Source of the DNA: an uncultured Anaerolineaceae bacterium
Lineage (GTDB): Bacteria; Chloroflexota; Anaerolineae; Anaerolineales; E44-bin32
Length of the DNA: 58,628 nucleotides
Assembly (NCBI GenBank): GCA_964517315.1
Contig: CAZFCJ010000006.1
Location: 1-58,628 of the forward strand
Direction: 5' to 3'
Shown piece after piece: positions 11,168 through 46,202 of this stretch. The position numbers and the translations under genes were made by a program. Position 1 is the stretch's first letter, and every line of letters starts with the position of its first letter. Under the pieces are notes generated by a model, which was given only the letters and a program-made list of their open reading frames with translations, was not told where the DNA came from and did no database searches.

Positions 11168-11202
11168 GATCTATTACATTCGCTCGGGCCGGCTCTTACT
11201 AT
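11168..11202 (+). promoter_or_regulatory. Island promoter motif GATCTAT-N22-TACTAT
   Basis: Read directly; same geometry upstream of several island genes. Confidence 0.6.
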
Positions 11203-11247
11203 CGACCCACAACCGGAAATCGAATGCCAAGTGGAGGAGGAGCAACT

Positions 11248-12147
11248 GTGCATAGGAACAAGTTTTACGTATGGGGTTTACTGGTTTTGATCCTGGCTCT
11301 CGCCTTGGGCGCTTGCGCCGAGCAGGGTGAAGATCTCACCGCCACTCCGGTCGGAGGCGTGGTGACCGAGACAGCCGAACCGAGCCCGGTCGAGACCGAG
11401 CCAGCGGCCACTGAGACGGAGGTCACCGAAGCCCCCGCCGAGACGGCCACGCCGACGCAAGACACGGGCGAAATGGAGACACCCGATTCGGTGCGCGCCC
11501 AGGACTTGCTCGATGCCGAGGTTCACATCGGCAGCGAAGCGGAGGCCTCGGCTGAAGTTGAGGATCTACTGATGGATGCCAATGGCAACATCCGCTGGGT
11601 GATCCTTACCGACCTCGAAACCGATGAGACGCTGGCCACGAGCATCGAGAGCTACCGCTACGAACAGCGCGAGGAAATGAGCCGGTTGACGGCTGAGACG
11701 GATCCCAGGGCCGAGGCCGAAACCATCGACCTCGACGCTGCCTTCGGCGACGATGCTTTCCTGGACGAGGATGCCGAAGTCCCGGCCAGCTTCTCCGGCG
11801 AGCAACTGATCCGCATGAGCGGATACACCGACTTCGACCTTCAAAATGATGCCGGAGAAGACCTGGGTGAGGTTGAGGGTCTGATCATCGACCTGCAATC
11901 GATGCAGGTCACCTACGCCATCGCAGATGTCGGCGGGTTCCTGGGAATAGGCGAAAACACCGTTCTGATCCCTTGGGAGCGGCTCGAATTGCAGCAGGCT
12001 GACGACGAGGAGCAGCCTCAGTTCGTCCTGCCTGGTGTGGATCAGGAGAGACTGGAGAACGCCCCCACCGTCGATCTGGACGCCATCGACCTGAGCCAGG
12101 AGAACTGGGACGAGGAATATCAGTCCTTCTGGACAAACGGCAGCTAG
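11248..12147 (+). CDS. Acidic lipoprotein with PRC-barrel domains
   Basis: GTG after GGAGGAGG; signal peptide with lipobox LGAC; T/E/P/A linker; GEDLGEVEGLIID...YAIADVGGFLGIGE...IPW. Confidence 0.85.
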   Translation: MHRNKFYVWGLLVLILALALGACAEQGEDLTATPVGGVVTETAEPSPVETEPAATETEVTEAPAETATPTQDTGEMETPDSVRAQDLLDAEVHIGSEAEASAEVEDLLMDANGNIRWVILTDLETDETLATSIESYRYEQREEMSRLTAETDPRAEAETIDLDAAFGDDAFLDEDAEVPASFSGEQLIRMSGYTDFDLQNDAGEDLGEVEGLIIDLQSMQVTYAIADVGGFLGIGENTVLIPWERLELQQADDEEQPQFVLPGVDQERLENAPTVDLDAIDLSQENWDEEYQSFWTNGS

Positions 12148-12171
12148 CATCAGTCACGCTTCAAATCAGAG

Positions 12172-12205
12172 AAAAGTGCGGTGGCTTTGAGCCACCGCAC
12201 TTTTT
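12172..12205. terminator. Rho-independent terminator, probably bidirectional
   Basis: AAAAGTGCGGTGGCT-TTG-AGCCACCGCACTTTTT perfect hairpin with A and T tracts. Confidence 0.85.
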
Positions 12206-12887
12206 CTTCCATTCCCCGCAACGCGCGAAACACCAAGGGGTTCAAGTTGAAGAGCTTGGAATCCGATTCAAACTCGCCGATCGATCCCACTTATATCTGC
12301 CCTCCTCCCCGACGATAGATACTTCCCTGCCGACTTTATCCCTACCATGAAGAACGGGCGTGGGAGGTCATCGAAGCGCTCAATGGGAATTCAGGGGAAA
12401 GCCCCTCATGAAGGTGTGTCTGACGTACTTGCGCTGCTCGGAATTGATTCATACCCGATGTGGGATTTAGAGTGGGCGCGAGCAAGCCTGACGACCTTTT
12501 TGCCGCCATGGCCATCTATATTATCGTCGTTCACGACCCCGATTTAGCGACCGAGAATTATGAAGTGGCGACTGAACAAGCGGCACTTGGGGATCGTGAG
12601 GCCCTGCTCGCAAAATTGGTCCGCAAAGTATCGAAGCATGATCGGGACGCCTGAGCAGCCGCTATTGAGAGCCGTTGTTGCTGCGGGCCCGCTGGTGGCG
12701 AGTCCTGCACTCATTTCATCTGTCCATTGGCGTGGGCGGCCCACAGTCGTCGCCTTGATCTGCGCACAACGTTCTGGGCTCCGAAGGGATCTAACGAGGC
12801 CCCCGTATACGTGCAGTAAGAATGCTGTTCCTGAATGGGTCCCCGACGAGCTGGCCGGCAAGCCGTGCGACAGCCACCTCGACCAGT

Positions 12888-13979
12888 TCAGTGAACCATC
12901 CCACCGGCCAGCTGCGGATCCCTCAACAGTTCGAGGCATTCCTCTTCAATTTGCCGCACTCGCTCCCGCGTGATTCCGAGCCGCCGGCCAATAGCCGCCA
13001 GGGAGTGCGTTCGCCCGTCACGCAGGCCAAAACGCAGTCTGATAACCAGGGCCTGGTGCGGGCTCAAGTGCTTCAACAAGTCCTGAACTTGCCGCTCCAA
13101 TTCTTGTCGGCGGTCATCGGCCAGAATCGGATGGGGGTCCTCATCCGGTATGGTGTCTTCCAGCGTCCGTAGACCTTCTCCGGGAACGCGCTCGTTCAGA
13201 GATACTGGGTGGAGGGCATACTCCTGAAGTTGCCTGACCCGTGCCGGCTCGATCCGCAATTCCGAACCCAGTTCCTCCTCCGTGGGCTCACGGCCCAGGT
13301 CCTGTTCGAGCCGCATTCGGCACTTCCTCATGCGGGTGATGGCGTTGATCGTATGCACGGGTATGCGGATGGTCCGGGCGTTGTTCTCAATGCTCCGGCG
13401 GATGGATTGCCGAATCCACCAGGTAGCGTAGGTGGAGAATTTAAAGCCGCGCCGGTGGTCAAATTTTTTAATCGCTCTCATCAAACCCAAGTTGCCATCC
13501 TGCACCAAGTCGGCCAGCGGAACCCCTCGACCGACGTAACGTTTGGCCATGCTGATCACCAGGCGCAGGTTCGCCGCAATCAGATGCCGACGGGCGGCCT
13601 CGCCTTGACGGATGCGCCGGACCGCTTCCTCCGGGGAGAGATCACCCGCGGCTAATTGGCGCCTTGCCTCAGCACCCGCTTCAATCCGCTTGCTCAAGGT
13701 GACTTCCTGCTCCTGAGTAAGGAGTGGCACCTGGCCGGCTTCGTCCAAGTAGAGACTGAAACTGTCGCCGTGACGCCGTCCTTCCGAACCATCCACGCGG
13801 GATCCGTTCTTCGACTGCTTGAGTACTTCCACGCCGCGTTCCTCAAGCTGCTGCTGAACCCAGACAATCCGCTCCTCGTTGCCGGCACCATTGAGCAGAC
13901 TGCTGATGTCCTGCCGGAAGACGTAGCCTTGAGACTCGGCGAGCTCAGTGAGTTTTTCGATGGCCTGCTTCTGATTCAA
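12888..13979 (-). CDS. RNA polymerase sigma-70 factor (RpoD/RpoS-like, probably group 2)
   Basis: YLDEAGQVPLLT (1.2), ANLRLVISMAKRY, GNLGLMRAIKKFD..RGFKFSTYATWWIRQ (2), TRERVRQIE (4.2); TTG start with GGAGGG. Confidence 0.92.
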   Translation of the reverse strand: MNQKQAIEKLTELAESQGYVFRQDISSLLNGAGNEERIVWVQQQLEERGVEVLKQSKNGSRVDGSEGRRHGDSFSLYLDEAGQVPLLTQEQEVTLSKRIEAGAEARRQLAAGDLSPEEAVRRIRQGEAARRHLIAANLRLVISMAKRYVGRGVPLADLVQDGNLGLMRAIKKFDHRRGFKFSTYATWWIRQSIRRSIENNARTIRIPVHTINAITRMRKCRMRLEQDLGREPTEEELGSELRIEPARVRQLQEYALHPVSLNERVPGEGLRTLEDTIPDEDPHPILADDRRQELERQVQDLLKHLSPHQALVIRLRFGLRDGRTHSLAAIGRRLGITRERVRQIEEECLELLRDPQLAGGMVH

Positions 13980-14550
13980 CGGGGATCCCTCCGATCATGA
14001 TGGGGAAAAGTGGGTCGCCCACGTCGCGTTTCCTCTGTCCTCTTAGGGTTAGGATCCGTCGGACGTTGGTGACCAGTCAAAATAAGACCCGCATCATTAA
14101 ATTCTGGTGCAGGGGATCGACGTTCATGATCCGCGCCCCGATGGGGAAGCGCCTCCAGTCGACGAGCCTCCTTCACCATCACTCGCCAGTCTCTACGTTT
14201 ACCTCCGTATGGCACAGGCAGCCACGCCAGGAATTTATAGACCCATCGCCCTCAAGTTCAGGCGTCCTCATTTCATCGCCTGATTCGGCCACTTCGTACC
14301 GGCAGACTAATGTGAATCGATCCGGCTGTCATGTACCCCAATGCATAGACTCAGGTAGAAGCCGCTGGATTCCCATAGCTCTAGGCTGATCATTGATGGC
14401 ATCAAACTGCGGCCGACGAGGGCGTTGGAGTGGAACGGAAGCGGTCAATGACCCATCGCGATTGAATTCGGCCGCCGCTGACATCCGGGAGCTGGATTCA
14501 TGAGCGGATGTCCACGAAACGCCTGGCTCCGGATTGAATCCTCTGTCGTA

Positions 14551-16176
14551 TTAGGCTTGAGACTGGAGCCAACCGTAGCCGTAGGGGCGCAGGAGCAAAC
14601 GTTGCCCTTCAATTCGTAACGGTTGCCGTCCATCGGAAAGCAGCGTGGTGAGCTCGGCGGATTCGGCACCGATGGCCTCCAGACCCACCTGTTGGGCCTC
14701 TTCGGTCAAGTTGTGCAGCGCGGTGACTTCCCTTCCGTGCCAGCTGCAACGGTGGGCGAACACGTGAGGGCTCGACACTTCTAGAACCTGGCAGGCTCCA
14801 TTGCCCAGCTCAGGTGCGTCCCGCCGTGCTCGGAGCATGTGCCCAATCCGGCTCAATAGCGAATCCCGATTACTCTGCTGATCCACCACGTTGATGCGTT
14901 CGTAGCCGAATGGGCCTTCATTAATTACCGGCCGGATCAGATGGTCCGGCTCGGCGGTCGAAAATCCTGCGCTGCGCTTCGCCGTCCATTGCATCGGCGT
15001 ACGAATCGCGGTCCGGCCGCTTAACGACAGATCGTCTCCCATACCGATCTCCTCACCGTAGCGCAGCACGGGCGTTCCCGGCATCGAGAACATCAGGCTG
15101 TAGGCCATTTCGATCTTGGCCCGCTTACCCTTGAGCATCGGTGGCAGCCGCCGTCGGATGCCGCGACCGAATATACGCATACGCTCTTCCGGGGCGAATT
15201 TTTCAAATACCTCCTGCCGCTCTTTATCCGTCAATCGGTCCAGGTTCAGTTCATCATGATTGCGCAGGAAGTTGGCCCACTGACCGTTCGGTGGGATGGA
15301 AGGGATCTCCTGCATGCTGTTTCGGATGGGTTCCGCCCGCTCCCGTGCCAATCCCAAGATCAGGTGCTGATTGAGCAGGAAATTGAAGAGCATGTGCATG
15401 CGGCTGTCGCCGGCGAAGTACTCATTGACCTTGTCCGGAGCGACGTTGGCTTCAGCCAGCAGGATCGCGTCGCCCTGATGCCACGACAGGTAGTCCCTGA
15501 ATTCGTCCAAATAGAGATAGGGATTATCAACATGGGGATCATCGATCCCCTTCAACTCGATCAGGAAAGGAGCCGCGTCCAGCCGAAACCCCGATACCCC
15601 CAAGGCGAGCCAAAAGCTCATGATCTTGCGCATTTCCTCCCGAACCTGGGGGTTGGCGATGTTCAATTCGGGCTGGTGCTTATAGAAGCGATGGTAGTAA
15701 TAGGCGCCGGCCTTCCGATCGTATGTCCACGTGGATTCCTGTTGGCCGGGGAAGACCATCCCCTTATCGGCTCCTTTGGGTTTCTCCTCCGACCAGACGT
15801 AGAAATCGCGGTACTTCGAGTCAGGGTTTCGCCGGGCCTGCTTAAACCATGGATGGTTGATTGAGGTGTGATTGATCACCAGGTCGACGACGACTCGCAG
15901 ACCGCGCTCCCACGCCAGATCCATGAACTTGACAAAGTCACCAAGGGTCCCCAACCGGGCATCCACTCCGTAGTAGTCCAGTACGTCATAGCCGTTGTCA
16001 CGGTTGGGTGAAGGGTAGAAGGGCAGCAGCCAGATTGTGTTCACGCCTAAATTGGCGATGTAGCCGATCTTTTCGCACAGACCGCCAAAATCACCGATGC
16101 CATCGCCGGTGCTGTCTTTGAAGGTCTCAACATCCAAACAATAGATCAACGCATTCTTATACCATCGTTCTGTCAT
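14551..16176 (-). CDS. treS: GH13 alpha-amylase family protein, trehalose synthase-like
   Basis: WYKNALIY, DLVINHTS, GFRLDAAPFL, LLAEAN, FLRNHDEL, YGEEIGMGD, RTPMQW. Confidence 0.8.
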   Translation of the reverse strand: MTERWYKNALIYCLDVETFKDSTGDGIGDFGGLCEKIGYIANLGVNTIWLLPFYPSPNRDNGYDVLDYYGVDARLGTLGDFVKFMDLAWERGLRVVVDLVINHTSINHPWFKQARRNPDSKYRDFYVWSEEKPKGADKGMVFPGQQESTWTYDRKAGAYYYHRFYKHQPELNIANPQVREEMRKIMSFWLALGVSGFRLDAAPFLIELKGIDDPHVDNPYLYLDEFRDYLSWHQGDAILLAEANVAPDKVNEYFAGDSRMHMLFNFLLNQHLILGLARERAEPIRNSMQEIPSIPPNGQWANFLRNHDELNLDRLTDKERQEVFEKFAPEERMRIFGRGIRRRLPPMLKGKRAKIEMAYSLMFSMPGTPVLRYGEEIGMGDDLSLSGRTAIRTPMQWTAKRSAGFSTAEPDHLIRPVINEGPFGYERINVVDQQSNRDSLLSRIGHMLRARRDAPELGNGACQVLEVSSPHVFAHRCSWHGREVTALHNLTEEAQQVGLEAIGAESAELTTLLSDGRQPLRIEGQRLLLRPYGYGWLQSQA

Positions 16177-16212
16177 GACGAACCCTTCACCCGGCTAGCG
16201 ATCGGTCAACGC

Positions 16213-17283
16213 TTACGATCGCCCTTCATGAGTCTTCTTGGCGATCAAGTATTTTGCATGGGACCATAGCAGGGGCGAGGCAATGTCGCCCCAGAATCCG
16301 CGCCAGGGCTCCAGGTAACTCGGCTCGTTCATGTTTTGTGGAATTTGTTCAGGAAGCCAACCGCGTTCATTCGCCTGCTGCTCCACCCAATCCAGCAGAG
16401 GTTCGGCCCGGCCCAATCGACCACAGTCGAGGTGGTATTTGGCCAGCCAGGCCGACAACAACAACCACGCGCCACCCCCATAATAAGTATCCTGTAAATT
16501 GCGGTGAACGCCCTGACCGCGCCGCAGCTGTTCTTCAATTCGCTTCACTGTCCTCACGAGCCGAGAATCGTCAAGGGGGACAATGGTGGACGGAAAGGCC
16601 ACTCCTAGCAAGCTAGCATCGATCCGCGCGTCGCCCACCGAACGAATAAAGGCCCCATCGAGCACGCCGTTGTGGAGCACGAACTGCCGGATCTGATCCA
16701 CTATCTGGATCGGAATCTGATCGTTAAGGCGCTTCCAGGCCTGCAACCCGGCCCAGATCGATGCCAAGGTGTAGATGTGCAGTCGGCGGTCGGCCTCCTC
16801 CCACACGTCGTAGCAGGGCACGCTCCACAGGGCGACGAGGTAGCCGCTGAGGCTTTCAGCGGCTCGTCTCATCTCCTCCGGCAGCTCGTCGACTTCCGTC
16901 AGTCGAGCGTGCTGCTGCAAGGCCCATAACCAGGTGCCCAGTCCGTCCAGTTGAAAATTGGACCATGGCATCTCTTTCACTGGCCGGCCCTCTACAGTAT
17001 AGCGAGTGTGAAGAATCATATCCTCTTCCAGTGGTTGGCCATCCCGGGCGCGTTCGATGGCGGCCACCAAGCGATTCTCACGAGACAAGATAACCTCGGA
17101 CGACCAATGGAAGAACCGTGTGGACGATGTGCTTTCACCCCATAGGTCAAGGGCGTGGGCGCAGTAGGCTCCATCGCGAAACCAGCAGTATTGGTAGGGT
17201 CCAAAATTGGGGCCGGCGATGTAGGCGCCGCTCTCGGCCTGGTTGGCGGTGATGATCTCGATGCTTCGGCGGGCTAGATCCAT
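16213..17283 (-). CDS. Glycoside hydrolase family 15 (glucoamylase/trehalase-like)
   Basis: YQYCWFRDG, QLDG, DVWEE, DASLL, LPEQ, PLLWSHA. Confidence 0.85.
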   Translation of the reverse strand: MDLARRSIEIITANQAESGAYIAGPNFGPYQYCWFRDGAYCAHALDLWGESTSSTRFFHWSSEVILSRENRLVAAIERARDGQPLEEDMILHTRYTVEGRPVKEMPWSNFQLDGLGTWLWALQQHARLTEVDELPEEMRRAAESLSGYLVALWSVPCYDVWEEADRRLHIYTLASIWAGLQAWKRLNDQIPIQIVDQIRQFVLHNGVLDGAFIRSVGDARIDASLLGVAFPSTIVPLDDSRLVRTVKRIEEQLRRGQGVHRNLQDTYYGGGAWLLLSAWLAKYHLDCGRLGRAEPLLDWVEQQANERGWLPEQIPQNMNEPSYLEPWRGFWGDIASPLLWSHAKYLIAKKTHEGRS

Positions 17284-17638
17284 TGGCCTCCTTCAGCGAG
17301 TCAGGCACAGGAAGGGCCGACCTGGGCGGAACCTTCGATCCTCTCGGTGGCCAGGGACAAGAATGGATTTTCTCCTGTGGCCGCGCCGGGAACCGAGTCT
17401 ACAGGGCCAGGACGCGCTCATCCGACCACATGGGAAGCTCAGTCGGCTACGAGCCTCGTCCAATGACGCGTATAGAGCCTCTCGCCCCCGGCGCCTTCTG
17501 ATCTCGCCACGGATGGAAATGAGCGCCCGATTTGATGCACAGCGGACCGGAAGCACACTGGAAACAGTGCCTGATCCATGATGAGTGCGATTGGCGGGGC
17601 CCCGCCGGCGCTATGCGAGCGGTGCCTCGGCTGCTCAG

Positions 17639-17989: not shown

Positions 17990-18258
17990 CGCTCGTTCCT
18001 TTGTCATCTTTGCCCAATTTGACTGAGGATAGTCCTGGAAATTTGGAAACGCCTGTATCGGGGTACATATTCCGAGATAGATTGCACGCCTATGATCGGG
18101 GTCCGGCTTCGGGAAGGGTGACACGCGGGTATATATCCCCTTCCAGTACTTGCGACTATTCCATCCTTCCTCGGCCTCACTCAGCATGGTTGTGGAAGCA
18201 CAGCTTTGCGCACCATGCTTGCAAAAACAATTTCATGACCCCATTGAAGGAGACAGGC

Positions 18259-19215
18259 ATGAAGCTCGGTTACGCCTTATCCAGCGAAGAACATCCGCCT
18301 CCTGACCTAGTCCGGAACGCCCAAAGGGCGGAGAGCGCGGGCTTTGATTTCGCGTTGATATCCGATCATTTCCATCCATGGATCGACCGACAGGGGCATA
18401 GCCCTTTCGTTTGGAGCGTGATTGGGGCCATCAGTCAGGTCACCGGTGAGCTTGAATTGGGCACCGGCGTCACCTGCCCGACCATGCGCATTCATCCGGC
18501 CATCATCGCGCAAGCTGCCGCCACCAGCGCCGCGCTCATGCCCGGTCGCTTCTTTCTGGGCCTGGGCAGCGGTGAAAACCTCAACGAACATATCCTTGGG
18601 CACCGCTGGCCCCCGTACGACCTGCGAGCCCCCATGCTCGAGGAGGCGGTCGAAATCATCCGGCTGCTGTGGGAAGGGGATTCGGTCACCTACTACGGCG
18701 ACTTCTATGACGTGGAGGAAGCGCGTATTTACACCCTGCCGGAGACTCCGCCCTCGATCTATCTGGCAGCCGGCGGCACGAAGTCCGCCGAGCAAGCCGG
18801 ACGCTTGGCTTCTGGGCTCATTTCCACTAGCCCGAAACACGAGTTGGTCAAGGCGTTCCGAGATCAGCTCGACGGCGGCGGGGACGCAATCGGCATGCTC
18901 ACGGTCTGCCATGCCAAGGACTACGACACGGCCCTCGACACCGCTTTCGAATGGTGGCCCAACAGCGCCCTACCGGGTGAACTGGCCCAGGAGTTGCGGA
19001 CCCCTGAACACTTTGAGCAGGCTACCCAATTAGTCACCAAGGAGCAGCTCGAGCGAAGTCTGACCCTGGGCAATGATGTGGAGACCTATTTGCAATCCGT
19101 CCAAAAATTCATCGATGCCGGCTTCGACAGGATCTATTTCCACCAGGTGGGACCCGATCAGGAAGGGTTCATGCAGTTCTTCAAGAATTCTCTTAAGCCG
19201 GAATTGGATCTCTAA
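18259..19215 (+). CDS. LLM-class (probably F420-dependent) oxidoreductase, G6PDH-like family
   Basis: GYALSSEEH, ISDHFHPW, GTGVTCPTMR, GSGENLNEH, HQVGPDQ; AAGGAG RBS. Confidence 0.9.
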   Translation: MKLGYALSSEEHPPPDLVRNAQRAESAGFDFALISDHFHPWIDRQGHSPFVWSVIGAISQVTGELELGTGVTCPTMRIHPAIIAQAAATSAALMPGRFFLGLGSGENLNEHILGHRWPPYDLRAPMLEEAVEIIRLLWEGDSVTYYGDFYDVEEARIYTLPETPPSIYLAAGGTKSAEQAGRLASGLISTSPKHELVKAFRDQLDGGGDAIGMLTVCHAKDYDTALDTAFEWWPNSALPGELAQELRTPEHFEQATQLVTKEQLERSLTLGNDVETYLQSVQKFIDAGFDRIYFHQVGPDQEGFMQFFKNSLKPELDL

Positions 19216-19392
19216 AAGTGGCCGAATGCGCTTTCGCCCGGGGAAATGAGCCGCCCAGCTTTAGTGCCCCTGGCCCCATCGGCAGCCCCGACCATCGATT
19301 TTTCAGACCGACCCGAGAAGCACGGGGCCTATGGAGGGGGCTGAGATCTGCCGGGCAGGAAGAAGCGAGTGGCTCCTGCTGGCGCCGGGCTC

Positions 19393-19932
19393 TCACTTCA
19401 CCTGCACCGAAACGCCCTTGAAGGCCACCTCCACTTGTTCAGCGTAGCGCCTGCCGTTCTTCCTATCGTGGCGCGGCATCTTCACTCGTTCGACTTCGAT
19501 GAGGATATCGTACTCGCCCGAGCCGGGGAGCCTCCAGTTCCTCCCGTAATGCGGCAGCCATGGATGCCACAGCAAGGGCTGTTGATGCCTGCCCACCTGC
19601 TTTCCCTGGGCGTCGAACACTGTAACGAAGACGGTGGCCCCATAGACGAAACGGTCATCGGCGGCGTCCCGCAGGGAAACCTCCACATGGACGTTGACAT
19701 CCTTGGGCTCCTTCCACACGAGATCATCCCCTTCGGGATGATACAGGCCTTCGGGTTTTTCAATCGCGTAAGCCACGATGTAATCTCCCGCCGCTTTCTC
19801 ATCCCCGATGTCGGCCACGAATTCGATCATGTGGCGCAGCGCCCTGACGTAGGCCTTGCCCTGCGATTTCGCCAGCTCAAGCTGGTTTAGGTTTGCCTCG
19901 TCACTCTTCACCTTCGGTTGTGCGCTTGTCAT
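19393..19932 (-). CDS. Tp34/P19-like 'iron transporter' family protein with no signal peptide
   Basis: HVEV, WHPWLPHYGRNW, MPRHD motifs typical of this metal-binding family. Confidence 0.65.
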   Translation of the reverse strand: MTSAQPKVKSDEANLNQLELAKSQGKAYVRALRHMIEFVADIGDEKAAGDYIVAYAIEKPEGLYHPEGDDLVWKEPKDVNVHVEVSLRDAADDRFVYGATVFVTVFDAQGKQVGRHQQPLLWHPWLPHYGRNWRLPGSGEYDILIEVERVKMPRHDRKNGRRYAEQVEVAFKGVSVQVK

Positions 19933-20351
19933 TCCTCGCTTCCTCCGCTTCAAAATTCTCACATCCAAGGTTCCAACCTCTTGCGAAATCCGTCAGGTTT
20001 CACCTCGCATATCGCCCCTTGACCTTCTCAGTCCGTTTTGACCAAACCTCTTGGCCTCCACCCCCAGGGATCAATTCAGGCCCCGTCATGGGAGAACAAA
20101 CTCCTTCAAGTGGAAAGCTGGCAGGTTAAATGGGATGGATGCAGAATGAGCCAGCAGCAAGCAAAAACGCGCTGAGAACATCAGCCGGACGATTGCCCGT
20201 CAACACACCATCGGACCCAACGGAATTCCATGATCATTTCCCCGACGCGAGACGGTTAATCCGTGGCCGGCACCCTCCTGTTTCGGAGGATGCCGGCCAT
20301 TTGTTTCTCCGTCCTGGGAGCTTCAGAACAGTTAGCTGTTCTGGGGCACGA

Positions 20352-20618
20352 TCAAGCCGCGCGGCGAACGAAGTTCACCAGCGCCAACAGCACGACGGCC
20401 CCGATGAAGGAAACCAACAGCCCCGACATACTGAAGTCGCCGGTGTTGATGGTGCCGGTGCCAAAGACCGGCCCCAGCAGGAAGCCACCGAGGAGTGCGC
20501 CGACAATCCCGACCACGATGTTCAAAAGGGCACCTTGCCGAGGGTCGGTGCCCATAACCATGCTGGCGAGCCAGCCGATGATCGCGCCGACAACCAACCA
20601 AACAATGAGACCGATCAT
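20352..20618 (-). CDS. GlsB/YeaQ/YmgE (transglycosylase-associated) stress membrane protein
   Basis: GAIIGWLAS...NIVVGIVGALLGG...SFIGAVVLL. Confidence 0.92.
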   Translation of the reverse strand: MIGLIVWLVVGAIIGWLASMVMGTDPRQGALLNIVVGIVGALLGGFLLGPVFGTGTINTGDFSMSGLLVSFIGAVVLLALVNFVRRAA

Positions 20619-21224
20619 TTTGACTACTCTCCTTCTTTTAGGGGGTGGGCATTAAGCCGGGACCGCCTCGTTGCTGCAGGACAGCCAGTCATGAAATCAT
20701 TCCCGCCTTCAAGCGGCGCAATTGCTGTCCCGGCTTCACCTTGTGCCATGTTGACATGGGGCATGGCCAAACTCAATATATCCTTATCCCCTCCACGGAT
20801 GCAGTGGGGGATACAAAGGGGTGGGATCCCCTCGAGCATACGCTGCTAGGATGTTTGATCCATAGGCAGCAGTCCGCCCATTTTGTACAATCCTGAACCA
20901 TGGAAACGTTTCCTTCATGGTCGCCCTACATAAGCCTTGCGACCCTTGTGTTTCTCATGTTGGTCGGATCTGTGGTCAAGCTGCCCGAGTTGGTCGTTTT
21001 CGCCGGCGGAGCAGCCTTACCCATCGGGTTGCACTGCTTGAAACGTGAAGCCAAGCTGCGGGATATGCACGACAACTAGTCTCAAAGCCTCAGCAAGCTC
21101 GCTTTGGAACCGATCAGATCCGGTCCACAACGGCGCGCCGGCCAGGCCGGTTCTCTCGCCCCCCCTGGCCATGTATGGTCCCCTGCCTCACCCGATGTCT
21201 CATCTGAAACCGCAGATCGGTCCA

Positions 21225-21479
21225 TTATGTCTCTTGAGTAGGGGCTTGCTCTTCCTTCGTTTGAAGCCTCTCAAGCAATTCCTCAGCCTGCTGCCGGGTG
21301 TCGGTGGCGGCTCGCTCCAATTCCTTTCGGATTTGATCGGATTTGTCCTTCAGTTGGGCGATGGTCTGCTCACCCGATTGGGGGGCATTCAGGATCGCGA
21401 TCGCGGCACCCACCAATCCGCCCAATAGCAACCCGCTGATGAAGGAGCCTAACCCGCTCCTCGTGTCATTCGTAGCCAC
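21225..21479 (-). CDS. YtxH-domain protein
   Basis: FISGLLLGGLVGAAIAILNAPQSGEQT followed by a coiled coil. Confidence 0.88.
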   Translation of the reverse strand: MATNDTRSGLGSFISGLLLGGLVGAAIAILNAPQSGEQTIAQLKDKSDQIRKELERAATDTRQQAEELLERLQTKEEQAPTQET

Positions 21480-21514
21480 GGTATAGTCCTTTCCTTATCG
21501 AGGTTTCTCATTCT

Positions 21515-21549
21515 AGACTATGGGGCTTGACGCGCGAGAACCATAGATC
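21515..21549 (-). promoter_or_regulatory. Island promoter motif GATCTAT-N22-TAGTCT (YtxH gene)
   Basis: Read directly on the minus strand. Confidence 0.6.
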
Positions 21550-21713
21550 GCAGGCATAAGGGGGAGCCTGCGGGGGCACATTCCCATACGTTCCCAGGAG
21601 TCCGGATCATCACATCCAGCGCGCATCTCGACCTATGAAGGCGATACATTTACCCACTACAGAATTTAGCCTATCGTCTGGGGAGCGGTGGTTTGGCTAA
21701 ATGGAGTGGGCCG

Positions 21714-36610: not shown

Positions 36611-37525
36611 TCAGTGACCGATGGTGGAGCCGGCCGGCACGATGACCGGAATGCGCCGCGGCAGGATCTTGACTCGAATGGGCAGCCTTCCAATAATGTC
36701 GCCATCACCCTGGACCACCATCGTGGAGGCGCCGTGGATGTCAACCTCGGTGATGTCCCGCGCCTGGATCCACGACTCCAGACCTTCGGGATTCCCTTTG
36801 AGCGACTGCACCGTCCGCTCAGGGATGGAACCCCCGCCCAAGGTCACCAGGCGCAGGCTGCCATCGTCGGGGCTTATCCTTCCTCCGAGCAGAGCTTCGG
36901 GCAAGCCTGTGATCCCCATATTCAAGACGGCCACCTCCATGAAGACGTCGCGGATTCGGCTGCAACCTAAATCCAAGGTGATCGGCTGCGGAACGAAATC
37001 GAAAGCGCTCTTGGCACCTTTTAGATAGTAGGCAAATAAACCGTAGCGCGCTTTGTCCCCCGCTCCCGTCCACTCCATCGATTGCGCGCTGACCCCGACG
37101 CTCAAGGATATGAGAAAGACCCGGTCGTTACAATAAATCGCATCCAGCCGGCGCACTTCATGACCTTCCCTTAGTAATTCCAACGCCGCCTCCACCTTCA
37201 GGGGGATGCCGAGCTGGCGGGCAACTCCATTGGCCGTTCCAATCGGCAAAATGCCCAGCGGCAACTCCTGATCCAGCAGCGCGCTCGCCACCCGGGAGAC
37301 TGTCCCGTCGCCGCCGGCTACCAGCACTCGCCCGGTGTCCGCTTGACGCATATCTTCCAAGACCGGCCTGAGATCCTCGTTGCCATTGGTGGTGTGAATG
37401 TGGATGGGCTCGGAATGGGAATCGGCCCAAGCCCGAAGCTCTTGGCGAATGTCAGCTCGCCCGCCGCCGGACTTGGGATTCAAGATCACCCCGGTCGCTC
37501 TCTTGCGAACGTCCTTTCTTATCAT
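36611..37525 (-). CDS. Diacylglycerol kinase family (YegS/BmrU) lipid kinase
   Basis: NPKSG, AGGDGT, LPIGTAN, QGDGD. Confidence 0.9.
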   Translation of the reverse strand: MIRKDVRKRATGVILNPKSGGGRADIRQELRAWADSHSEPIHIHTTNGNEDLRPVLEDMRQADTGRVLVAGGDGTVSRVASALLDQELPLGILPIGTANGVARQLGIPLKVEAALELLREGHEVRRLDAIYCNDRVFLISLSVGVSAQSMEWTGAGDKARYGLFAYYLKGAKSAFDFVPQPITLDLGCSRIRDVFMEVAVLNMGITGLPEALLGGRISPDDGSLRLVTLGGGSIPERTVQSLKGNPEGLESWIQARDITEVDIHGASTMVVQGDGDIIGRLPIRVKILPRRIPVIVPAGSTIGH

Positions 37526-37791: not shown

Positions 37792-37826
37792 AGCCTAATG
37801 CTGGCGGGAAAATCCTTCGATAGATC
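37792..37826 (-). promoter_or_regulatory. Island promoter motif GATCTAT-N22-TAGGCT (chaB)
   Basis: Read directly; preceded by TACCTC as at 46162. Confidence 0.6.
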
Positions 37827-37887
37827 GAGGTAACAATCGTGAAAACAAGAGATACAGACAGGAACGAACCTCGAGCGGCCAAGGGAT

Positions 37888-39115: not shown

Positions 39116-39150
39116 AATGTATGAAAGCCTTGCCCAATCCGCCATGTACC
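39116..39150 (-). promoter_or_regulatory. Island promoter motif variant GGTACAT-N22-TACATT
   Basis: Read directly, upstream of the DoxX gene. Confidence 0.5.
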
Positions 39151-39378
39151 GTGGATAGAGATCGATAACGATCGCTCACCCAATTCCCGGGTTGGGACGG
39201 GATCCTCACGATCGAGGAAGGTAACAAACCCTCATGGTTACCTCCGAGCGGCCGACTGTATCTCAGCATCTATCCAATTCCGCCCATCGATACATTCCCA
39301 AGAGCGCGTGACACCGTGAGGATGGACCAGCCAACCTTCCCCACTTGTGGCACTGGGATCAACGATTCGGATTCCCCC

Positions 39379-39912
39379 ATGAACTCTGAGAACCCACCGC
39401 CGGGTTGGGATAACAACCCCTCTTCTTGGCGAGACCGCCTGCCCATTATCGGTTTATCTGTTTGGGGATTTTTGATCGCCGGCTACCTGACTCTCTTCCA
39501 AGTCGACGTGATCACAACCGTCTGGGAACCCTTCTTTGGTGATGGCAGCCGCACCGTTCTAAATTCCCGGTTTTCACGGGTGCTTCCCGTTCCCGATGCC
39601 GCCTTGGGGGCCTTTGGGTACCTGTTGGATGCGGTGACCGGGGCCGTCGGCTCCCCCCATCGCTGGCGCCGGATGCCCTGGATTGTCATCCTCTTTGGAA
39701 TAGCCGTCGGCCCGCTGGGTTTGATCAGTATGACCTTGGTCATCATTCAGCCGGTCCTCCTCGACGCCTGGTGCAGCCTGTGTTTGCTGTCAGCGTTGGT
39801 TTCGGCCCTGATGATCGGCCCGGCGATGGATGAAGTGCTCGCCAGCCTGCAATTCTTGAAACGAGTGGATCGGGATCGATCTCTCTGGCGGGCCTTCTGG
39901 GGGATGTCATGA
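39379..39912 (+). CDS. Vitamin K epoxide reductase (VKOR) family protein
   Basis: PPGWDNNPS, VLNS, PDAALG, WCSLC (CxxC). Confidence 0.85.
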   Translation: MNSENPPPGWDNNPSSWRDRLPIIGLSVWGFLIAGYLTLFQVDVITTVWEPFFGDGSRTVLNSRFSRVLPVPDAALGAFGYLLDAVTGAVGSPHRWRRMPWIVILFGIAVGPLGLISMTLVIIQPVLLDAWCSLCLLSALVSALMIGPAMDEVLASLQFLKRVDRDRSLWRAFWGMS

Positions 39913-40268
39913 TCGCTCGTCTGCTCTCCTTGGCATTGGGACTCTGGCTGATGGCCGCGCCAGCGGTCCTCAACTACGGGCCACCGTTAGCCACCAGCGA
40001 CCGGATCATCGGCCCGCTCATCGCCACCGTCTCCATCATCGCGATCTCCGAGGCGACACGCGGGCTGCGTTGGGTTCCGCTTCCCGCTGGGCTGTGGTTG
40101 GTAACGTCGCCCTTGGTCATGAGCGGCTATGACCTGACAATGTTGTTCCACCACGCCTTGGTGGGTTTAGGGCTGGCTGCGCTTGCATTCTCCGGCGGCG
40201 ACATCCAGGGGCGTTACGGCGGCGGCTGGTCCGCCTTGTGGGCGGACGAGAAAGAGGCCGGTTCATGA
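39909..40268 (+). CDS. SPW-repeat membrane protein
   Basis: GLWLMAAP and GLWLVTSP repeats; RYGGGW tail; ATGA overlap with VKOR. Confidence 0.8.
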   Translation: MIARLLSLALGLWLMAAPAVLNYGPPLATSDRIIGPLIATVSIIAISEATRGLRWVPLPAGLWLVTSPLVMSGYDLTMLFHHALVGLGLAALAFSGGDIQGRYGGGWSALWADEKEAGS

Positions 40269-41647
40269 CGCCGACCACGGCCACAACTTCCGATCGCCGG
40301 GATGTAAGCAGCACACCCCAACAGGCACCGAAAGGATGGCGCCGGCTGCTATGGCTCGGACCGGGTTTCCTGTGGATGGTTTCCGCCGCTGGCTCTGGCG
40401 AGCTGTTGTTCACGCCGCGAATGGGAGCACTCTATGGCTATAGCTTGCTGTGGGCATTGATCACCGCAGTTGTCTTCAAGTGGGTCATTAATCGCGAGGT
40501 GGGGCGTTACACGGTGGCCACGGGGGAGACGGTGCTGGAGGGGATGCGCCGAATCCCCGGCCCTAACAATTGGGCGATCTGGTTGATCCTCCTACCCCAG
40601 TTGGTGGTGGCGGTGGCCACCATCGCCGGGCTGGCCGGCTCGGCCGCCAGCGCACTCATCCTGACCTTGCCGGGCGACATCCGAATATGGATGATCTTGG
40701 CGGTGCTGGCGTCCACCGCGCTCGTAGCCTGGGGCGAGTATCAGGGGATCGAGCGGGTCGCCATGGCCATCGCAATCGCCCTCGGAGTGGCCTCAGTCGT
40801 TGCAGCTCTGACCGCATTAACGGATCCTTCCCCTCTCCTGGTCGGCCTAGCCCCTCGAGTTCCAGCCGACATTGACTTTGGAGAGGTCCTGCCCTGGCTC
40901 GGTTTCATGCTGTCGGGCACCGCCGGCATGATCTGGTACTCCTATTGGCTTCGCAGCAAGGGTTACGGGGGGGCCACCAGCTCGCCGACGGAGACGTCGT
41001 CGCATTCTGAGGCTGACTTGGATAGGACCGCCCGGGAGCAGCTGCGTGGTTGGCTTCAGATGATGACTTTGGATAACAGCGTCGCCGTCATCGGGACCTT
41101 GATCATCACGGGTGCGTTCTTGATTTTGGGCACAGAGCTGTTGATGCCGCGTGGACTCGTACCGGCCGAGGATGAGATTGCCTCCGTTCTGGGTCGGCTG
41201 CTGGGCGAACTGTGGGGACCGATAGGTTTCTGGTTCATGGTGACAGCTGTCTTCATCGGATTTTGGGACACGGTATTGTCCGATCAGGATGGGTTCGGAC
41301 GGATGTTCGCCAACGGTCTCACACTACTTCCTGGGTTCAAGCAGCTGCTGACAAACCATTCGGACATAAGGGTCCGTCGCTGGCTGGTTCTGACCCTTTT
41401 GACCGCGATCCCCATCGGCGTGTATCTGCTCGTAGGCCGCCCCGTCGGCCTGCTAGCGCTGGCCGGCGCCATCGAGGCGGCCCAGATTCCAGTGCTGGCC
41501 GGCTTGGTGATCTGGATGAATGACCGGCTGCTGTCACCCTCGATTCGACCCACCTGGTACGAGCAAGCGGCCACGATCGTCGCCGGTGGTTTTTTTGCGC
41601 TCTTCGCTGCCTTCTTCCTGTGGCAGCTGATTGGATCCGCCGCTTAA
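40265..41647 (+). CDS. Nramp-family divalent metal transporter-like protein
   Basis: LGPGFLWMVSAAGSGE, GALYGYSLLWA, about 11 TMs; ATGA overlap. Confidence 0.8.
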   Translation: MTPTTATTSDRRDVSSTPQQAPKGWRRLLWLGPGFLWMVSAAGSGELLFTPRMGALYGYSLLWALITAVVFKWVINREVGRYTVATGETVLEGMRRIPGPNNWAIWLILLPQLVVAVATIAGLAGSAASALILTLPGDIRIWMILAVLASTALVAWGEYQGIERVAMAIAIALGVASVVAALTALTDPSPLLVGLAPRVPADIDFGEVLPWLGFMLSGTAGMIWYSYWLRSKGYGGATSSPTETSSHSEADLDRTAREQLRGWLQMMTLDNSVAVIGTLIITGAFLILGTELLMPRGLVPAEDEIASVLGRLLGELWGPIGFWFMVTAVFIGFWDTVLSDQDGFGRMFANGLTLLPGFKQLLTNHSDIRVRRWLVLTLLTAIPIGVYLLVGRPVGLLALAGAIEAAQIPVLAGLVIWMNDRLLSPSIRPTWYEQAATIVAGGFFALFAAFFLWQLIGSAA

Positions 41648-43703: not shown

Positions 43704-43832
43704 GGGACTGGGGTTTGTCCAATTCATTTGGAGTTCCAATTCATATCCACGTGTATATCGGGGATAGATGGCGACCCCCCGGAAGGTGTTTGACCATTTC
43801 GCTAAACGGTGTTCAAAGAAGGAGAAAAATCT

Positions 43833-44339
43833 ATGTCTCTCGAGACCCTCTACGACCTGTATATCGATCAATTGAAGGACCTCTACAGCGCCGAAAACCA
43901 ATTGGTGGACGCGTTGCCCGAGATGGCCGCTGCCGCGACGGACGCAGAACTGCAGCAGGCCTTTGAAGATCATGCCCAGCGGACCAGATCACACGTGGAA
44001 GAGGTGCGCGCTATCCTCGACGAACTCGATGTCGACCCCGGTAATAAGGTCTGCGTTGGCATGGAGGGCCTGATCAAGGAGAGCCGGGAAGTCATTGAGA
44101 AGGAGGCCTCGGCGGCAGCCAAGGACGCCGCGCTGATTCTGGCAGCGCAAAAGGTCGAGCATTATGAGATTGCGTCCTACGGCGGCCTCAGAACCTATGC
44201 CGAGTTGCTCGACTACGGCGATTTCGAGTCAACCCTGGCTGACATCCTCGACGAGGAGGGGCAGGCCGACAAGCGATTGACTGAATTGGCCGAAGGAAGA
44301 GTGTTTGAAAAAGGCTTGAACGTAAAAGCGCAGGAGTAG
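43833..44339 (+). CDS. yciF: YciE/YciF ferritin-like protein (DUF892)
   Basis: LKDLYSAENQL...MEGLIKE...DAALILAAQKVEHYEIASYG...EE..ADKRLT. Confidence 0.92.
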   Translation: MSLETLYDLYIDQLKDLYSAENQLVDALPEMAAAATDAELQQAFEDHAQRTRSHVEEVRAILDELDVDPGNKVCVGMEGLIKESREVIEKEASAAAKDAALILAAQKVEHYEIASYGGLRTYAELLDYGDFESTLADILDEEGQADKRLTELAEGRVFEKGLNVKAQE

Positions 44340-44755
44340 CTTGGCCCCCCGGACCGAGACGCGATCGGCGATGGAACGACGGCAGTGGGCGGAGGCCAAT
44401 TGAATGGATGGTCGGGGCTGAACCAAACGGGTCAGTCCCGTCATTTTATGCGGTGATCCCCTTGCTGGCCAACCGCCCGAGTGCCGAGCCGCAGCCACAC
44501 CCATCCACCCCCATGACCATCGCCAGGACCCCAAATGCGCCGAAAACAATCACGACGAGGACCAAAAGGACGGCGGTGCAGGATCACCGTGTCCAGCTCT
44601 TAAACCGTCCGCAACGGAGCTCGCCTCCTGGTTCGGCGGAGCGGCCTCAAGGTTGCTTCGAATATGCGCCAACGGACGCTCCTGCTCAGAAACGGTTGTG
44701 CTGCTCTCTGCGATTCGGTCTGGGGACACTGTTCCAGGGGGACCTCGTCCGGGGT

Positions 44756-45139
44756 CTATCCCTCAAAATAGCCGATCGTCGTGAGCAGTGCGTTCTCCGC
44801 CTGGCGGGAGTCCAGACGCGTGTGCTGTACGACGATGGGCACGTCGGAAGAAATCACACTGGCATAGTCGCGCCCTAAAGGAATCGGTTCGGGGTCGGAG
44901 AAATCGTTGAAGCGCAGGTGGCGTGTGCGTCTGGCGGACACGCGGAAGACATAAGGTCCCAGCGGCTCGCGATCGCCGAAATAGATTGTGATCTCGATCT
45001 CGGCCTCTTGATCGCTTGCGTTCAGAATACAAACGGTCTCGTGACTGAGCATTTCTGGCTGAGGGCCACTGCTTCTCTCCGGAATATATCCTTCCGCAAT
45101 CGCCCAGCGGCGCTTTCCTATCGATTCGGGCATATTCAT
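44756..45139 (-). CDS. Sensory rhodopsin transducer (ASRT) family protein
   Basis: IGKRRWAIAEGYIP, SHETVCILN, RRTRHLRFND, VPIVVQHTRLDSRQ. Confidence 0.88.
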   Translation of the reverse strand: MNMPESIGKRRWAIAEGYIPERSSGPQPEMLSHETVCILNASDQEAEIEITIYFGDREPLGPYVFRVSARRTRHLRFNDFSDPEPIPLGRDYASVISSDVPIVVQHTRLDSRQAENALLTTIGYFEG

Positions 45140-45254
45140 GTCTCCTTTCGGTGATGGTCATCGTTTGCGTGAAATGTGTGCGGGCCACTACATTTTGAGG
45201 ACGGACAACGTTAGATCGGATCGATGAATGCTCAAAGACTGGAATGCCTCTGCC

Positions 45255-45836
45255 CTATTCCGGCGAAGCCGGGAAATCCGGCACGGGTCTCGCTTCCGCC
45301 TCCTCCTGGCTGGCCGCCAGATCATATGCCCGTATATCCTCAATCAGCCATTCCATCTCGGCGATCTCACGGCGCTGAGCTTTGATAATCTCATCGGCAA
45401 GCTCACGCACTCTCGGATCTTTGATCCTTGCGCGCTCACTGGTCAAAATGGCGATCGAATGGTGTGGGATCATTGCTTCCATGTAGTCCACATCCGTGAC
45501 GCTGGCCTGGCTGCGCACCAGCCACACGGCGGAGAGCAGCAACACGAAGGCGCCGGCGAAGATCGCCAAGTTGACCCTCCGATCGCGGTACATCCCCAGC
45601 ATGAAGCTAAGCATTACGATCGCCATCACTGAGCCCATGATCAGCGTCATGAACAAGCGGGTTTCGCTGAACCAGGCATGGTCAAAGATCTGGTAGGAAT
45701 TCAGATAGGTGACCAAATACATGGTCACCATTGATGTGCCGATCATGGCGAAAAAGATCCCGTAATTCCCACCTCCGCCGCTTCTAACGTTCATGGGCTG
45801 GTGGTCCCGCTGCAAATTTCGTCTGTTGTCCCTCAT
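45255..45836 (-). CDS. DUF305 domain membrane protein
   Basis: Three TMs, then MIPHHSIAILTS...IIKAQRREIAEM. Confidence 0.85.
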   Translation of the reverse strand: MRDNRRNLQRDHQPMNVRSGGGGNYGIFFAMIGTSMVTMYLVTYLNSYQIFDHAWFSETRLFMTLIMGSVMAIVMLSFMLGMYRDRRVNLAIFAGAFVLLLSAVWLVRSQASVTDVDYMEAMIPHHSIAILTSERARIKDPRVRELADEIIKAQRREIAEMEWLIEDIRAYDLAASQEEAEARPVPDFPASPE

Positions 45837-46167
45837 GCCATTTCCTACCTGTTTTGAAGTTTGCCCAACGGATCATCTTCCAGCCTGAAGCCGTTCCCAT
45901 GCGGGTGTGATCAATCGCGCCTCGCGCGGTTCGCGCTCTGCGAGCGCATTTTTTCCGGGCCCGATCAGGCATGTCGCTGTGATGGCTCGTGGACCCAACC
46001 TGAACCGCTTTCAGAAGATACTCAACAGACGGATTCGATCCAGACTAAACATAGTGAGCGAGCGATTGGAAGGCTTACGCCAAAGTGCATATTTAAAGGT
46101 AGATTGCAGGTATACGTTCGCTTGGGCTGGAAACCGCGGGGCGACATATATCCGCTTTTCGTACCTC

Positions 46168-46202
46168 GATCTATGGTCCCCGTACGTCTCGTATCCGAAA
46201 GT
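46168..46202 (+). promoter_or_regulatory. Island promoter motif GATCTAT-N22-GAAAGT
   Basis: TACCTCGATCTAT identical to the chaB site; weaker -10. Confidence 0.45.

Follow-up and report, generated by a model that had tools for sequence, protein, structure and literature searches.

Which protein reads the promoter pattern shared by a cluster of stress genes in an uncultured, Anaerolineae-type member of the Chloroflexota? The cluster spans 35 kb of the window, by which we mean the whole 58.6-kb stretch of DNA analyzed (contig C6 of a 326-contig, 4,064,555-base [4.06-Mb] genome with a completeness of 89%). An earlier note on this DNA had counted by hand the heptamer GATCTAT, or variants of it, followed after 22 nucleotides (N22) by a -10-like hexamer and had read it as an activator site that overlaps the -35 position and defines a general-stress regulon. 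Based on sequence comparisons, we conclude that a cis-regulatory operator is present and that it is real and conserved. We put at roughly 55% the probability that it serves the island's NarL-family regulators with degenerate receiver domains, which would activate the island genes in a class-II-type manner.

Anaerolineae-type Chloroflexota are abundant in soils, sludge, and sediments, and to our knowledge almost nothing is known about how their transcription is regulated. Placement of the genome in this group is supported by the titles of related contigs, and DNA near-identical to window positions 20500-30400 was found in 12 listed runs from 3 studies, in soil-metagenome or unlabelled DNA contigs, with no RNA run among them. 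The analysis yields a defined operator sequence (ATRTAYC-N2-3-GRTAYAT, ending 22 nt upstream of the -10 hexamer), a short list of candidate regulators, and a gene set that is open to tests without culturing. If the proposed reading is true, a general-stress-type program would run under a phosphorylation-independent NarL-family activator instead of an alternative sigma factor, and a small local regulon would have expanded to an island-wide one. The mechanism, in which a GerE-type dimer occupies a 7-2-7 site adjacent to -35, is a textbook one; what is of value is therefore the new regulon with its regulator family, not a new principle. We found no published description of the motif, of a Chloroflexi general-stress regulon or regulator, or of this regulator family in a literature search that did not cover the RegPrecise Chloroflexi collection (PMC3840689).

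Enrichment and geometry of the motif

On rechecking the sequence, we found all 13 sites of the earlier note with the coordinates, heptamers, spacings, and hexamers it had given them. The window contains 11 copies of GATCTAT where 4.17 +/- 1.80 were expected, a count attained by none of 100 dinucleotide shuffles; 6 of the 11 are intergenic and oriented to the next gene, and 5 are in coding sequence (16141, 18756, 19131, 23132, and 30777). Among the 226 occurrences genome-wide, the distance from GATCTAT to TANNNT has its mode at 22 (7 cases), with no more than 3 cases at any other distance from 2 to 47. Five of the seven genome-wide matches to GATCTAT-N22-TANNNT fall inside the window, which makes up 1.4% of the genome. 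The comparison with shuffled sequence and genomic background that had been proposed as a check thus revealed an excess of both the heptamer and the composite pattern in the window.

Extended to two arms, the pattern TRYC-N2-3-GRTNYAT-N22-TANNNT matched this genome 7 times, 6 of them in the window, against 0 in a control read backwards; 40 other related genomes together gave 35 matches against 28 in the control. For the loose heptamer G[AG]TNNAT, an N22 peak was absent genome-wide (42 cases at offset 22 and 27 to 57 elsewhere), and the signal is therefore a property of the island, not of the whole genome. A leave-one-out matrix placed 9 of 10 window sites at ranks 10 to 27 of ∼8.1 million genome positions, with 43763 at rank 365. 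The 22 spacer columns of the window sites are nearly devoid of information, so we are not dealing with a dispersed repeat. A de novo Gibbs sampler set to find a single site in each of 34 intergenic regions gave, in its best run, CCATAGATC-like words at some promoters only, which is weak support for the motif.

The motif is an imperfect inverted repeat of heptamers, ATRTAYC-N2-3-GRTAYAT, in which GATCTAT or a variant forms the promoter-proximal arm. The 7-(2/3)-7 repeat described in the earlier note was recovered at 9 of the 10 core sites, where a left arm ending in TRYC precedes the heptamer by 2 to 3 nt (1 to 2 nt at 11168); the arm spacer is 3 bp at five of these sites and 2 bp at three. At 8 of the 10, the heptamer is 63 to 112 nt 5' of the start codon, and it is always directed toward the gene. 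The proximal arm ends 22 nt before the TAnnnT hexamer and therefore has one base in common with the -35 position: its last T is the first base of a hexamer placed 17 bp from -10, in agreement with the claim that the site overlaps or abuts -35.

At 12 window sites, the hexamer in the putative -35 position shares on average 2.5 of its 6 bases with TTGACA, about chance; canonical TTGACA-N17-TATAAT-like promoters are present elsewhere in the genome (e.g., C12:41533 and C20:26322). Since the window promoters have no usable -35 element, we read a dimer bound to the dyad as a putative class-II-type activator. With a dyad that ends 22 nt before the presumed -10, the geometry fits a site centered at -41.5 to -44.5 if TAnnnT is the -10 hexamer. 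Together, the chance-level -35 matches and the rigid spacing make the site probably an activator site, as the earlier note had proposed. The dyad, its palindromic form in distant relatives, and further heptamers upstream likewise argue for a protein site rather than a sigma -35 element.

Pfam and NCBIfam scans of the called genes assigned those downstream of the motif to typical stress families, CsbD, YtxH, DUF892, and ChaB among them. We take CsbD, YtxH, PRC-barrel, DUF892/YciE-like, GlsB/YmgE-like, and Ku/LigD proteins to be families of SigB, EcfG, or RpoS regulons. Those responses use a special -35/-10 pair, unlike the dyad upstream of an ordinary TAnnnT hexamer seen here. EcfG-like (GGAAC-N16-17-CGTT; 2 against 0.88 expected) and SigB-like (GTTT-N-GGGWAT; 1 against 0.67 expected) patterns occurred in the window at chance level and at none of the motif-bearing promoters. 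These counts and the stress families agree with the proposal of a general-stress regulon whose promoters are unlike those of EcfG and SigB.

The motif in close and distant relatives

In the sister genome G002, contig C167 is syntenic with window positions 18259-31337, and the proteins are 58 to 88% identical. The G002 orthologs of CsbD, YtxH, the YetF-like protein, and a 139-amino-acid (aa) protein are each preceded by a site with this geometry. The YtxH site (L051 8569+, ATATATC-CAC-GATCTAT-N22-TATCCT) is orthologous to site 21549 and the CsbD site (L051 1855+) to site 29070; at the YetF-like ortholog, GATATAT is found 66 nt upstream (L051 8499-). Just beyond the regulator pair on G002:C65, GTGTGCC-CGC-GATCCAT is a look-alike of site 34665. 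GATCTAT-N22-TANNNT occurs 4 times in G002 against 0 in the control, with other relatives near control. The upstream region of the G002 PRC-barrel gene holds the heptamers TTATATC, GATCTAC, and GATACAG but no clean composite, and the G002 ortholog of the DAGK-like gene is truncated by the contig end. Among G002, G001, and G023, a DUF892 ortholog was found in G001 only, and the motif is absent upstream of it.

For the distant sample, we collected 80 loci, totaling 1.26 Mb, that surround homologs of the regulator of 258 aa encoded at 32500-33276; most of them come from other families of the Chloroflexota (Ardenticatenaceae, Promineifilaceae, Caldilineaceae, Anaerolineales, and similar). Searched for the dyad alone, these loci gave 27 dyads, and the distance to the next TANNNT peaked at 22 (9 cases; at most 3 at any other distance). 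With N21 to N23 allowed, the composite matched 28 times in 20 of the 80 loci, against once in reversed sequence, and the spacing was N22 in 25 of the 28 even though the pattern tried N21 first. Thirteen of the 28 are within 700 bp of the regulator gene, where 3.2 were expected. The sites differ from one another in sequence and are therefore not assembly duplicates of a single one.

The logo of the 25 N22 sites, TATACC-NN-GRTAYAT, is clearly palindromic (e.g., TATACC-NN-GGTATAT), and the arm spacer is 2 bp in 20 of them. Extra heptamer-like blocks, not required by the pattern, are conserved at -31 to -28 and -21 to -16, and a G at +8 completes a TnGACa -35 element at the canonical 17 bp in about 10 of the 25. 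For a matrix built from the distant sites alone, the top match in the entire genome under study was the ChaB site at 37826 (29.7 bits).

We scanned the first downstream ORF (open reading frame) at 20 of the 28 distant sites, the first 20 listed, and found a family for 12 and none for 8. CsbD was seen twice and SDR three times; MgtC, an alpha-amylase with CBM48, an MGH1/trehalase-like hydrolase, DUF2383, an Na/H exchanger, an AtpI-like protein, and fasciclin were each seen once. The gene content common to the window and the distant targets includes CsbD, MgtC, SDR, alpha-amylase/trehalase-like enzymes, and ferritin-like proteins. In five distant genomes searched whole, 2 to 3 of 2 to 6 matches were on the contig of the regulator, and the predicted regulons of distant genomes are, by this measure, small and local.

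Candidate regulators and rival explanations

The island encodes a four-gene cassette of a PAS/HisKA_3 histidine kinase, a canonical NarL-type response regulator, and two paralogous NarL-family regulators of 258 and 230 aa (Table 1). The island regulators also match the NarL (E = 7.7e-21), VraR, DesR, and DevR chains, and the best solved relative of the canonical regulator is DevR (E = 2e-29). The canonical regulator has the acidic pocket, the phospho-acceptor Asp, and the other receiver residues. Aligned to NarL and VraR with HMMER, the 230-aa protein shows Asn at their phospho-acceptor Asp position, and it has no DD pair; the receiver of the 258-aa protein is ambiguous, with D and T present and Lys missing. 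No NCBIfam model attained its cut-off for this degenerate-regulator family.

The constant neighbor in motif-bearing distant loci is usually one degenerate NarL-type gene. All 18 of the 18 aligned distant homologs (MAFFT) carry the helix GTVKNHVHN and lack both the acidic pocket and the phospho-acceptor Asp. Within the stretch examined, 3 of the 20 motif-bearing loci had a canonical-regulator match (L062, L101, and L116) and 1 a kinase match (L101). The gene order of the cassette (kinase, regulator, and then the two degenerate regulators) is seen again on G000:C186 and G001:C44; G023:C247 carries all four cassette genes, and the short contig G002:C65 carries the degenerate pair. The paralogous second cassette at C186:1-4865 consists of a kinase fragment, a canonical NarL-type regulator (TVSTYRRR), a stand-alone receiver, two degenerate regulators (GTVKNHVHN and GTVKNHVHS), and a sigma-70 paralog; the composite motif was not found on this 4.9-kb contig.

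The sequence data show the motif with its enrichment, geometry, and conservation, and its linkage to the regulator gene. What we infer from sequence about binding, activation, the identity of the binder, the signal, and the physiology is as follows. A NarL/GerE-family transcription factor would bind the ATRTAYC-N2-3-GRTAYAT dyad, whose proximal arm would in this genome have mostly drifted to GATCTAT, often with one or two further heptamers upstream. The dyad center would be at about -42.5 if transcription starts ∼7 nt after the hexamer, and the bound dimer, or pair of dimers, would recruit RNA polymerase through sigma region 4 and alpha. The likeliest binders would be the proteins encoded at 33316-34008 and 32500-33276, with almost identical recognition helices, the 230-aa product of the former being the best candidate. 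Of the three LuxR/NarL proteins named as possible binders in the earlier note, these two appear better candidates and the canonical response regulator less so; the latter and the adjacent PAS kinase would probably act upstream of the degenerate pair. The regulon would span at least 9 to 11 promoters (about a dozen) over 35 kb plus three sites elsewhere in the genome. Its targets would be small stress proteins, membrane proteins, and probably trehalose or redox genes, a set that would fit a desiccation or general-stress program of a soil bacterium.

Parts of this proposal have counterparts in well-studied systems. The heptamer of NarL operators, TACYYMT, aligns in no register with ATRTAYC or GRTAYAT; the NarL spacer is 2 bp, whereas many window sites have 3 bp; and the likely binder here has no phospho-acceptor Asp and targets stress genes instead of nitrate respiration genes. 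The likeness is in the paired 7-bp inverted repeat beside -35 and the further site upstream: at the Escherichia coli yeaR-yoaG and ogt promoters, a GerE-type dimer occupies 7-bp inverted repeats 2 bp apart that abut or are just upstream of -35, ogt has a second site farther upstream (-44.5 and -77.5), and NarL alone can activate (PMC7419079). DevR/DosR of Mycobacterium tuberculosis, a NarL-subfamily regulator of a few dozen stress/dormancy genes, binds tandem palindromic boxes. DevR boxes are at -42.5, as predicted for the proximal dyad here, and at -63.5, with helical phasing required (PMC3177182); the DosR dimer contacts sigma region 4 and alpha (PMC13486717); and DevR needs Asp54 phosphorylation (PMC3029386). 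The Dev box is described there as an 18- to 20-bp palindrome with essential G5 and C7 (PMC3177182), which the unrelated AT-rich heptamers of the island do not have. Also unlike the DevR case, the upstream dyad here, where present, is ∼25 bp from the proximal one, and the targets here form a cluster within a single island.

Atypical or pseudo-receiver GerE-family regulators such as RcsB-like SecR are reported to combine a receiver-like domain without phosphorylation residues with a GerE helix-turn-helix (PMC12632262, PMC13199381). The degenerate regulators of the island are similar in build; no specific named family matches them. The TreS-like and GH15 trehalase-like genes of the island recall OrrA of Anabaena sp. 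PCC 7120, a likeness in gene content; OrrA belongs to a different phylum, and the trehalose operon here has no supported site. BldM and WhiI, further examples of such atypical regulators, act as a heterodimer, and by analogy the paired island paralogs might do the same.

Several observations weigh against our proposal of an activator operator read by the degenerate regulators. G001, of the same genus, 94% complete and in possession of the four-gene cassette, had 0 composite matches against 3 in the control and no site beside the cassette. Eleven CsbD loci in five further genomes of the class gave no match of at least 13 bits (CsbD was found in just 6 of the 61 genomes of the class); since these loci are without the motif, the motif follows the regulator and not the target family. 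The matrix from distant sites recovered just 8 window sites among its 42 genome hits of at least 10 bits, against 28 control hits genome-wide, and the five distant genomes searched whole totaled 20 matches against 12 in the control. Spacer length (2 or 3) and arm sequence vary between lineages. Within the core set, 26881 has no left arm, and three sites have no TAnnnT (46168 GAAAGT, 43763 GACCAT, and 26671 TGCGTT); the -10-like hexamer claimed for the six exact GATCTAT sites was thus TAnnnT in five. The first matrix was trained on the sites of the earlier note, a circularity that the leave-one-out and distant-site matrices lessen in part, and gene positions and starts are those of a simple ORF caller. 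About 10 of the 25 distant sites, moreover, have a good -35 element (4 to 5 of 6 bases of TTGACA) flush with the dyad, which makes repression possible at such promoters.

The motif could accordingly be a repressor operator, where a protein bound at the upstream border of -35 would keep RNA polymerase out until stress dislodges it. Distant sites with a good -35 at 17 bp from a good -10 could fire unaided, the site and the -35 position have one base in common, and NarL-family proteins can repress: of 26 listed regulatory regions, 11 are activated by NarL (PMC7419079). We nonetheless regard a repressor as improbable. The window promoters, with their chance-level -35, would be weak unaided; no site overlaps the -10 hexamer or +1; and the rigid N22 (25 of 28), with heptamers extending upstream rather than into the core promoter, is a class II activator trait.

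Slightly less probable, in our judgment, is that the same operator and geometry are bound by the phosphorylatable canonical regulator encoded at 31339-31986, with the PAS kinase as its partner and the degenerate pair as targets or cofactors. Kinase and regulator are central in the island, the cassette is kept in G000:C186, G001:C44, and G023:C247, site 29070 is within the divergent upstream region of the kinase gene, and DevR, the best solved relative, acts in such a way. The helix of the canonical regulator (TVSTYRRR), however, is unlike the invariant GTVKNHVHN of the gene that accompanies the motif in distant genomes, where the scarcity of canonical-regulator (3/20) and kinase (1/20) matches in motif-bearing loci also speaks against it, and G001 has the cassette without a motif excess.

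We give very little credence to the heptamer as a nonstandard promoter element that the island's alternative sigma factor (12888-13979) would itself recognize, with no separate DNA-binding protein involved. A group-1/2-type sigma gene is indeed present, with a motif-like N21 sequence upstream, and another sigma paralog follows the second cassette on C186; on the other hand, sigma region 4 would not require a dyad and further repeats upstream of it, a separation of 22 nt between a 7-mer and -10 is unlike sigma-70-family spacing (the normal 17-bp -35 position is visible inside it), and no sigma homologs were found within the motif-bearing distant loci. A search of G001, G002, and G023 gave no ortholog of this sigma gene together with its upstream DNA; the best partial match in G002 resembles a housekeeping sigma factor and has a canonical TTGACA-N17-TACACT promoter. 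The island sigma gene might itself belong to the regulon, or its product might act as a partner sigma factor.

Chance or hand-picking of AT-rich intergenic words or repeat remnants can hardly account for the pattern: weak variants (17478 and 18128), the missing genome-wide N22 peak of the loose heptamer, and the partial Gibbs recovery are set against a count that 0 of 100 shuffles attained, composite matches of 7 against 0, the crowding of 5 of 7 into 1.4% of the genome, and a spacing kept in G002 and in distant families over spacers unrelated in sequence.

Returning to the operator of the degenerate regulators, we conclude that the regulon is an accessory island feature and not a phylum-wide stress response. 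More tentatively, and as a possibility that we think somewhat unlikely in full, a NarL-type family without a phosphorylation site and its multiheptamer operator at -42.5 would form the core of a general-stress/desiccation response in Anaerolineae-type Chloroflexota, mostly at two to three neighboring promoters per lineage. Here, the regulator would have been duplicated and joined with the PAS kinase and response regulator into the four-gene cassette, and the regulon would have grown to a dozen promoters on a self-contained 35-kb island, one that is probably transferable.

Individual sites and neighboring genes

The sites in the window and the genes of the regulators are collected in Table 1. 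Two of the variants in the earlier note, 17478 and 18128, found no support from any matrix, and two others, 26671 and 14337, are uncertain; the sequence at 14337, upstream of the sigma gene, is present as written but unconfirmed, with no comparative support. The variant at 17444-17488 (-; GCTCTAT/TAGCCG) is likewise present in the sequence but unsupported as a site: no matrix match of at least 9 bits was obtained, and none with the distant-site matrix. Also unsupported, as a promoter of this type, is 18118-18162 (+; GGTATAT/TATTCC): it has no matrix match and is within the palindrome GGGTATATATCCC, and 18062 is the better candidate. This palindrome (18126-18138) consists of two overlapping half-sites without a spacer, 66 nt downstream of the supported 18062 site.

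Table 1. Motif sites, the genes that follow them, and regulatory genes of the island (positions in the window; bits refer to the matrix from distant sites, scores and ranks to the leave-one-out matrix)
Feature	Position	Strand	Sequence	Gene and remarks
Site 1	11158-11202	+	TAGATAC-CC-GATCTAT (11168-11174)-N22-TACTAT	80 nt 5' of PRC-barrel gene 11248-12147; score 21.1, rank 10
Site 2	21515-21559	-	TTATGCC-TGC-GATCTAT (21549-21543)-N22-TAGTCT	70 nt 5' of YtxH 21479-21225
Site 3	26871-26915	+	GATCTAT (26881)-N22-TAGCAT	78 nt 5' of DUF3309 26959-27111, then DUF1328 27186-27365; rank 12
Site 4	34655-34699	+	TTGTGCC-CGT-GATCTAT (34665)-N22-TAAATT	112 nt 5' of 89-aa ORF 34777-35046, without family
Site 5	37792-37836	-	TGTTACC-TC-GATCTAT (37826-37820)-N22-TAGGCT	67 nt 5' of ChaB 37759-37556
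Genes after ChaB (site 5)	37489-36611, 36510-35491	-		DAGK-like kinase, then EEP-family protein
Site 6	46158-46202	+	TCGTACC-TC-GATCTAT (46168)-N22-GAAAGT	∼205-250 nt 5' of DUF2231 (46372 or 46420 to 46902); 17.9 bits; rank 16
Site 7	29036-29080	-	ATATATC-AGA-GGTATAT (29070-29064)-N22-TATGTT	162 nt 5' of CsbD 28908-28696; divergent region common to kinase gene
Site 8	39116-39160	-	CTCTATC-CAC-GGTACAT (39150-39144)-N22-TACATT	63 nt 5' of DoxX-like gene 39087-38542; rank 27
Gene after DoxX-like	38463-37888	-		191-aa ORF
Site 9 (weaker)	43753-43797	+	GTATATC-GGG-GATAGAT (43763)-N22-GACCAT	70 nt 5' of DUF892 43833-44339; score 9.2, rank 365
New site	18052-18096	+	CTGTATC-GG-GGTACAT (18062)-N22-TATGAT	197 nt 5' of F420-dependent LLM oxidoreductase 18259-19215; 18.2 bits
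New site (moderate)	21633-21677	+	GATACAT (21643)-N22-TATCGT	71 nt 5' of YetF/DUF421 21714-22463; divergent from site 2; 10.4 bits
Gene after YetF/DUF421	22496-23389	+		BrkB/YihY-like
Uncertain site	26637-26681	-	TTGTGCC-TC-GATCCAT (26671)-N22-TGCGTT (poor -10)	Next same-strand called gene 515 nt away: AI-2E transporter 26156-24912; rank 15
Uncertain site	14304-14347	-	GGTACAT (14337-14331)-N21-TAGTCT	∼320 nt 5' of sigma gene; no clear left arm
Candidate site	12304-12348	+	GATAGAT (12314)-N22-TACCAT	158 nt 5' of 60-aa ORF 12472-12654
Sigma-70 gene, group-1/2 type	12888-13979	-		363 aa; one of at least six such paralogs in the genome
PAS/HisKA_3 histidine kinase	29343-31337	+		With 31339-31986, upstream half of conserved four-gene cassette
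Canonical NarL-type response regulator	31339-31986	+		Helix TVSTYRRR; GerE PF00196, E = 6.7e-16
Paralogous NarL-family regulator	32500-33276	+		258 aa; helix GTVKNHVHNLL; GerE PF00196, E = 1.6e-14
NarL-family regulator, degenerate receiver	33316-34008	+		230 aa; helix GTVKNHVHSIL; GerE PF00196, E = 3.1e-15

Outside the window, candidate sites were found at C4:13679, C107:956, and C118:7892. The last precedes a gene for a 143-aa membrane protein, which resembles one downstream of a site in L110, and then a GlsB/transglycosylase-associated gene. The site sequence in C118:7892-8981 is GATGCAT-N22-TATGCT with GTATCC and GATCTATC upstream, and a weak CsbD-like match was seen at C118:4477-4626. The C118 region looks like a small second stress cluster.

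Other genes of the island encode MgtC, an Nramp-like transporter, an SDR protein, and TreS-like and GH15 proteins, with Ku and LigD at the edge; in a scan of the window, none of these genes had a supported site. At 14551-17283 (-), the TreS-like maltose alpha-D-glucosyltransferase gene (578 bits, below the cut-off of 678) adjoins the GH15 trehalase/glucoamylase-like gene, pointing to trehalose metabolism. The end-joining repair pair at the island edge is on the minus strand, with Ku at 49552-50355 and LigD, which has phosphoesterase, ligase, and primase-polymerase domains, at 46925-49501. GATCCAT occurs upstream of Ku (∼50400) but with no TAnnnT at N22, and we did not count it as a site of the Ku-LigD operon.

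Among minor features of the sequence, 8 of the 10 core sites have GA no more than 3 nt past the -10 hexamer (e.g., TAGTCTaGA and TACATTGAg), a tendency much weaker in the 25 distant sites, where A is at +37 in 11. Inside the DAGK-like gene, GATTTAT-N22-TATCCT at 37105-37149 (-) scored 19.5 bits, 629 nt upstream of the EEP-family gene; this could be an internal promoter or chance. No RNA families were detected with Rfam in the entire window. ARAGORN called a tRNA-Thr (TGT) at 40209-40284 (+), running into the end of the SPW-domain ORF (39909-40268); no Rfam tRNA reached the gathering score there, and the call may be spurious. Finally, the 125-aa product of the gene at 44756-45133 (-) belongs to the Anabaena sensory rhodopsin transducer family (PF07100, E = 1.7e-55).

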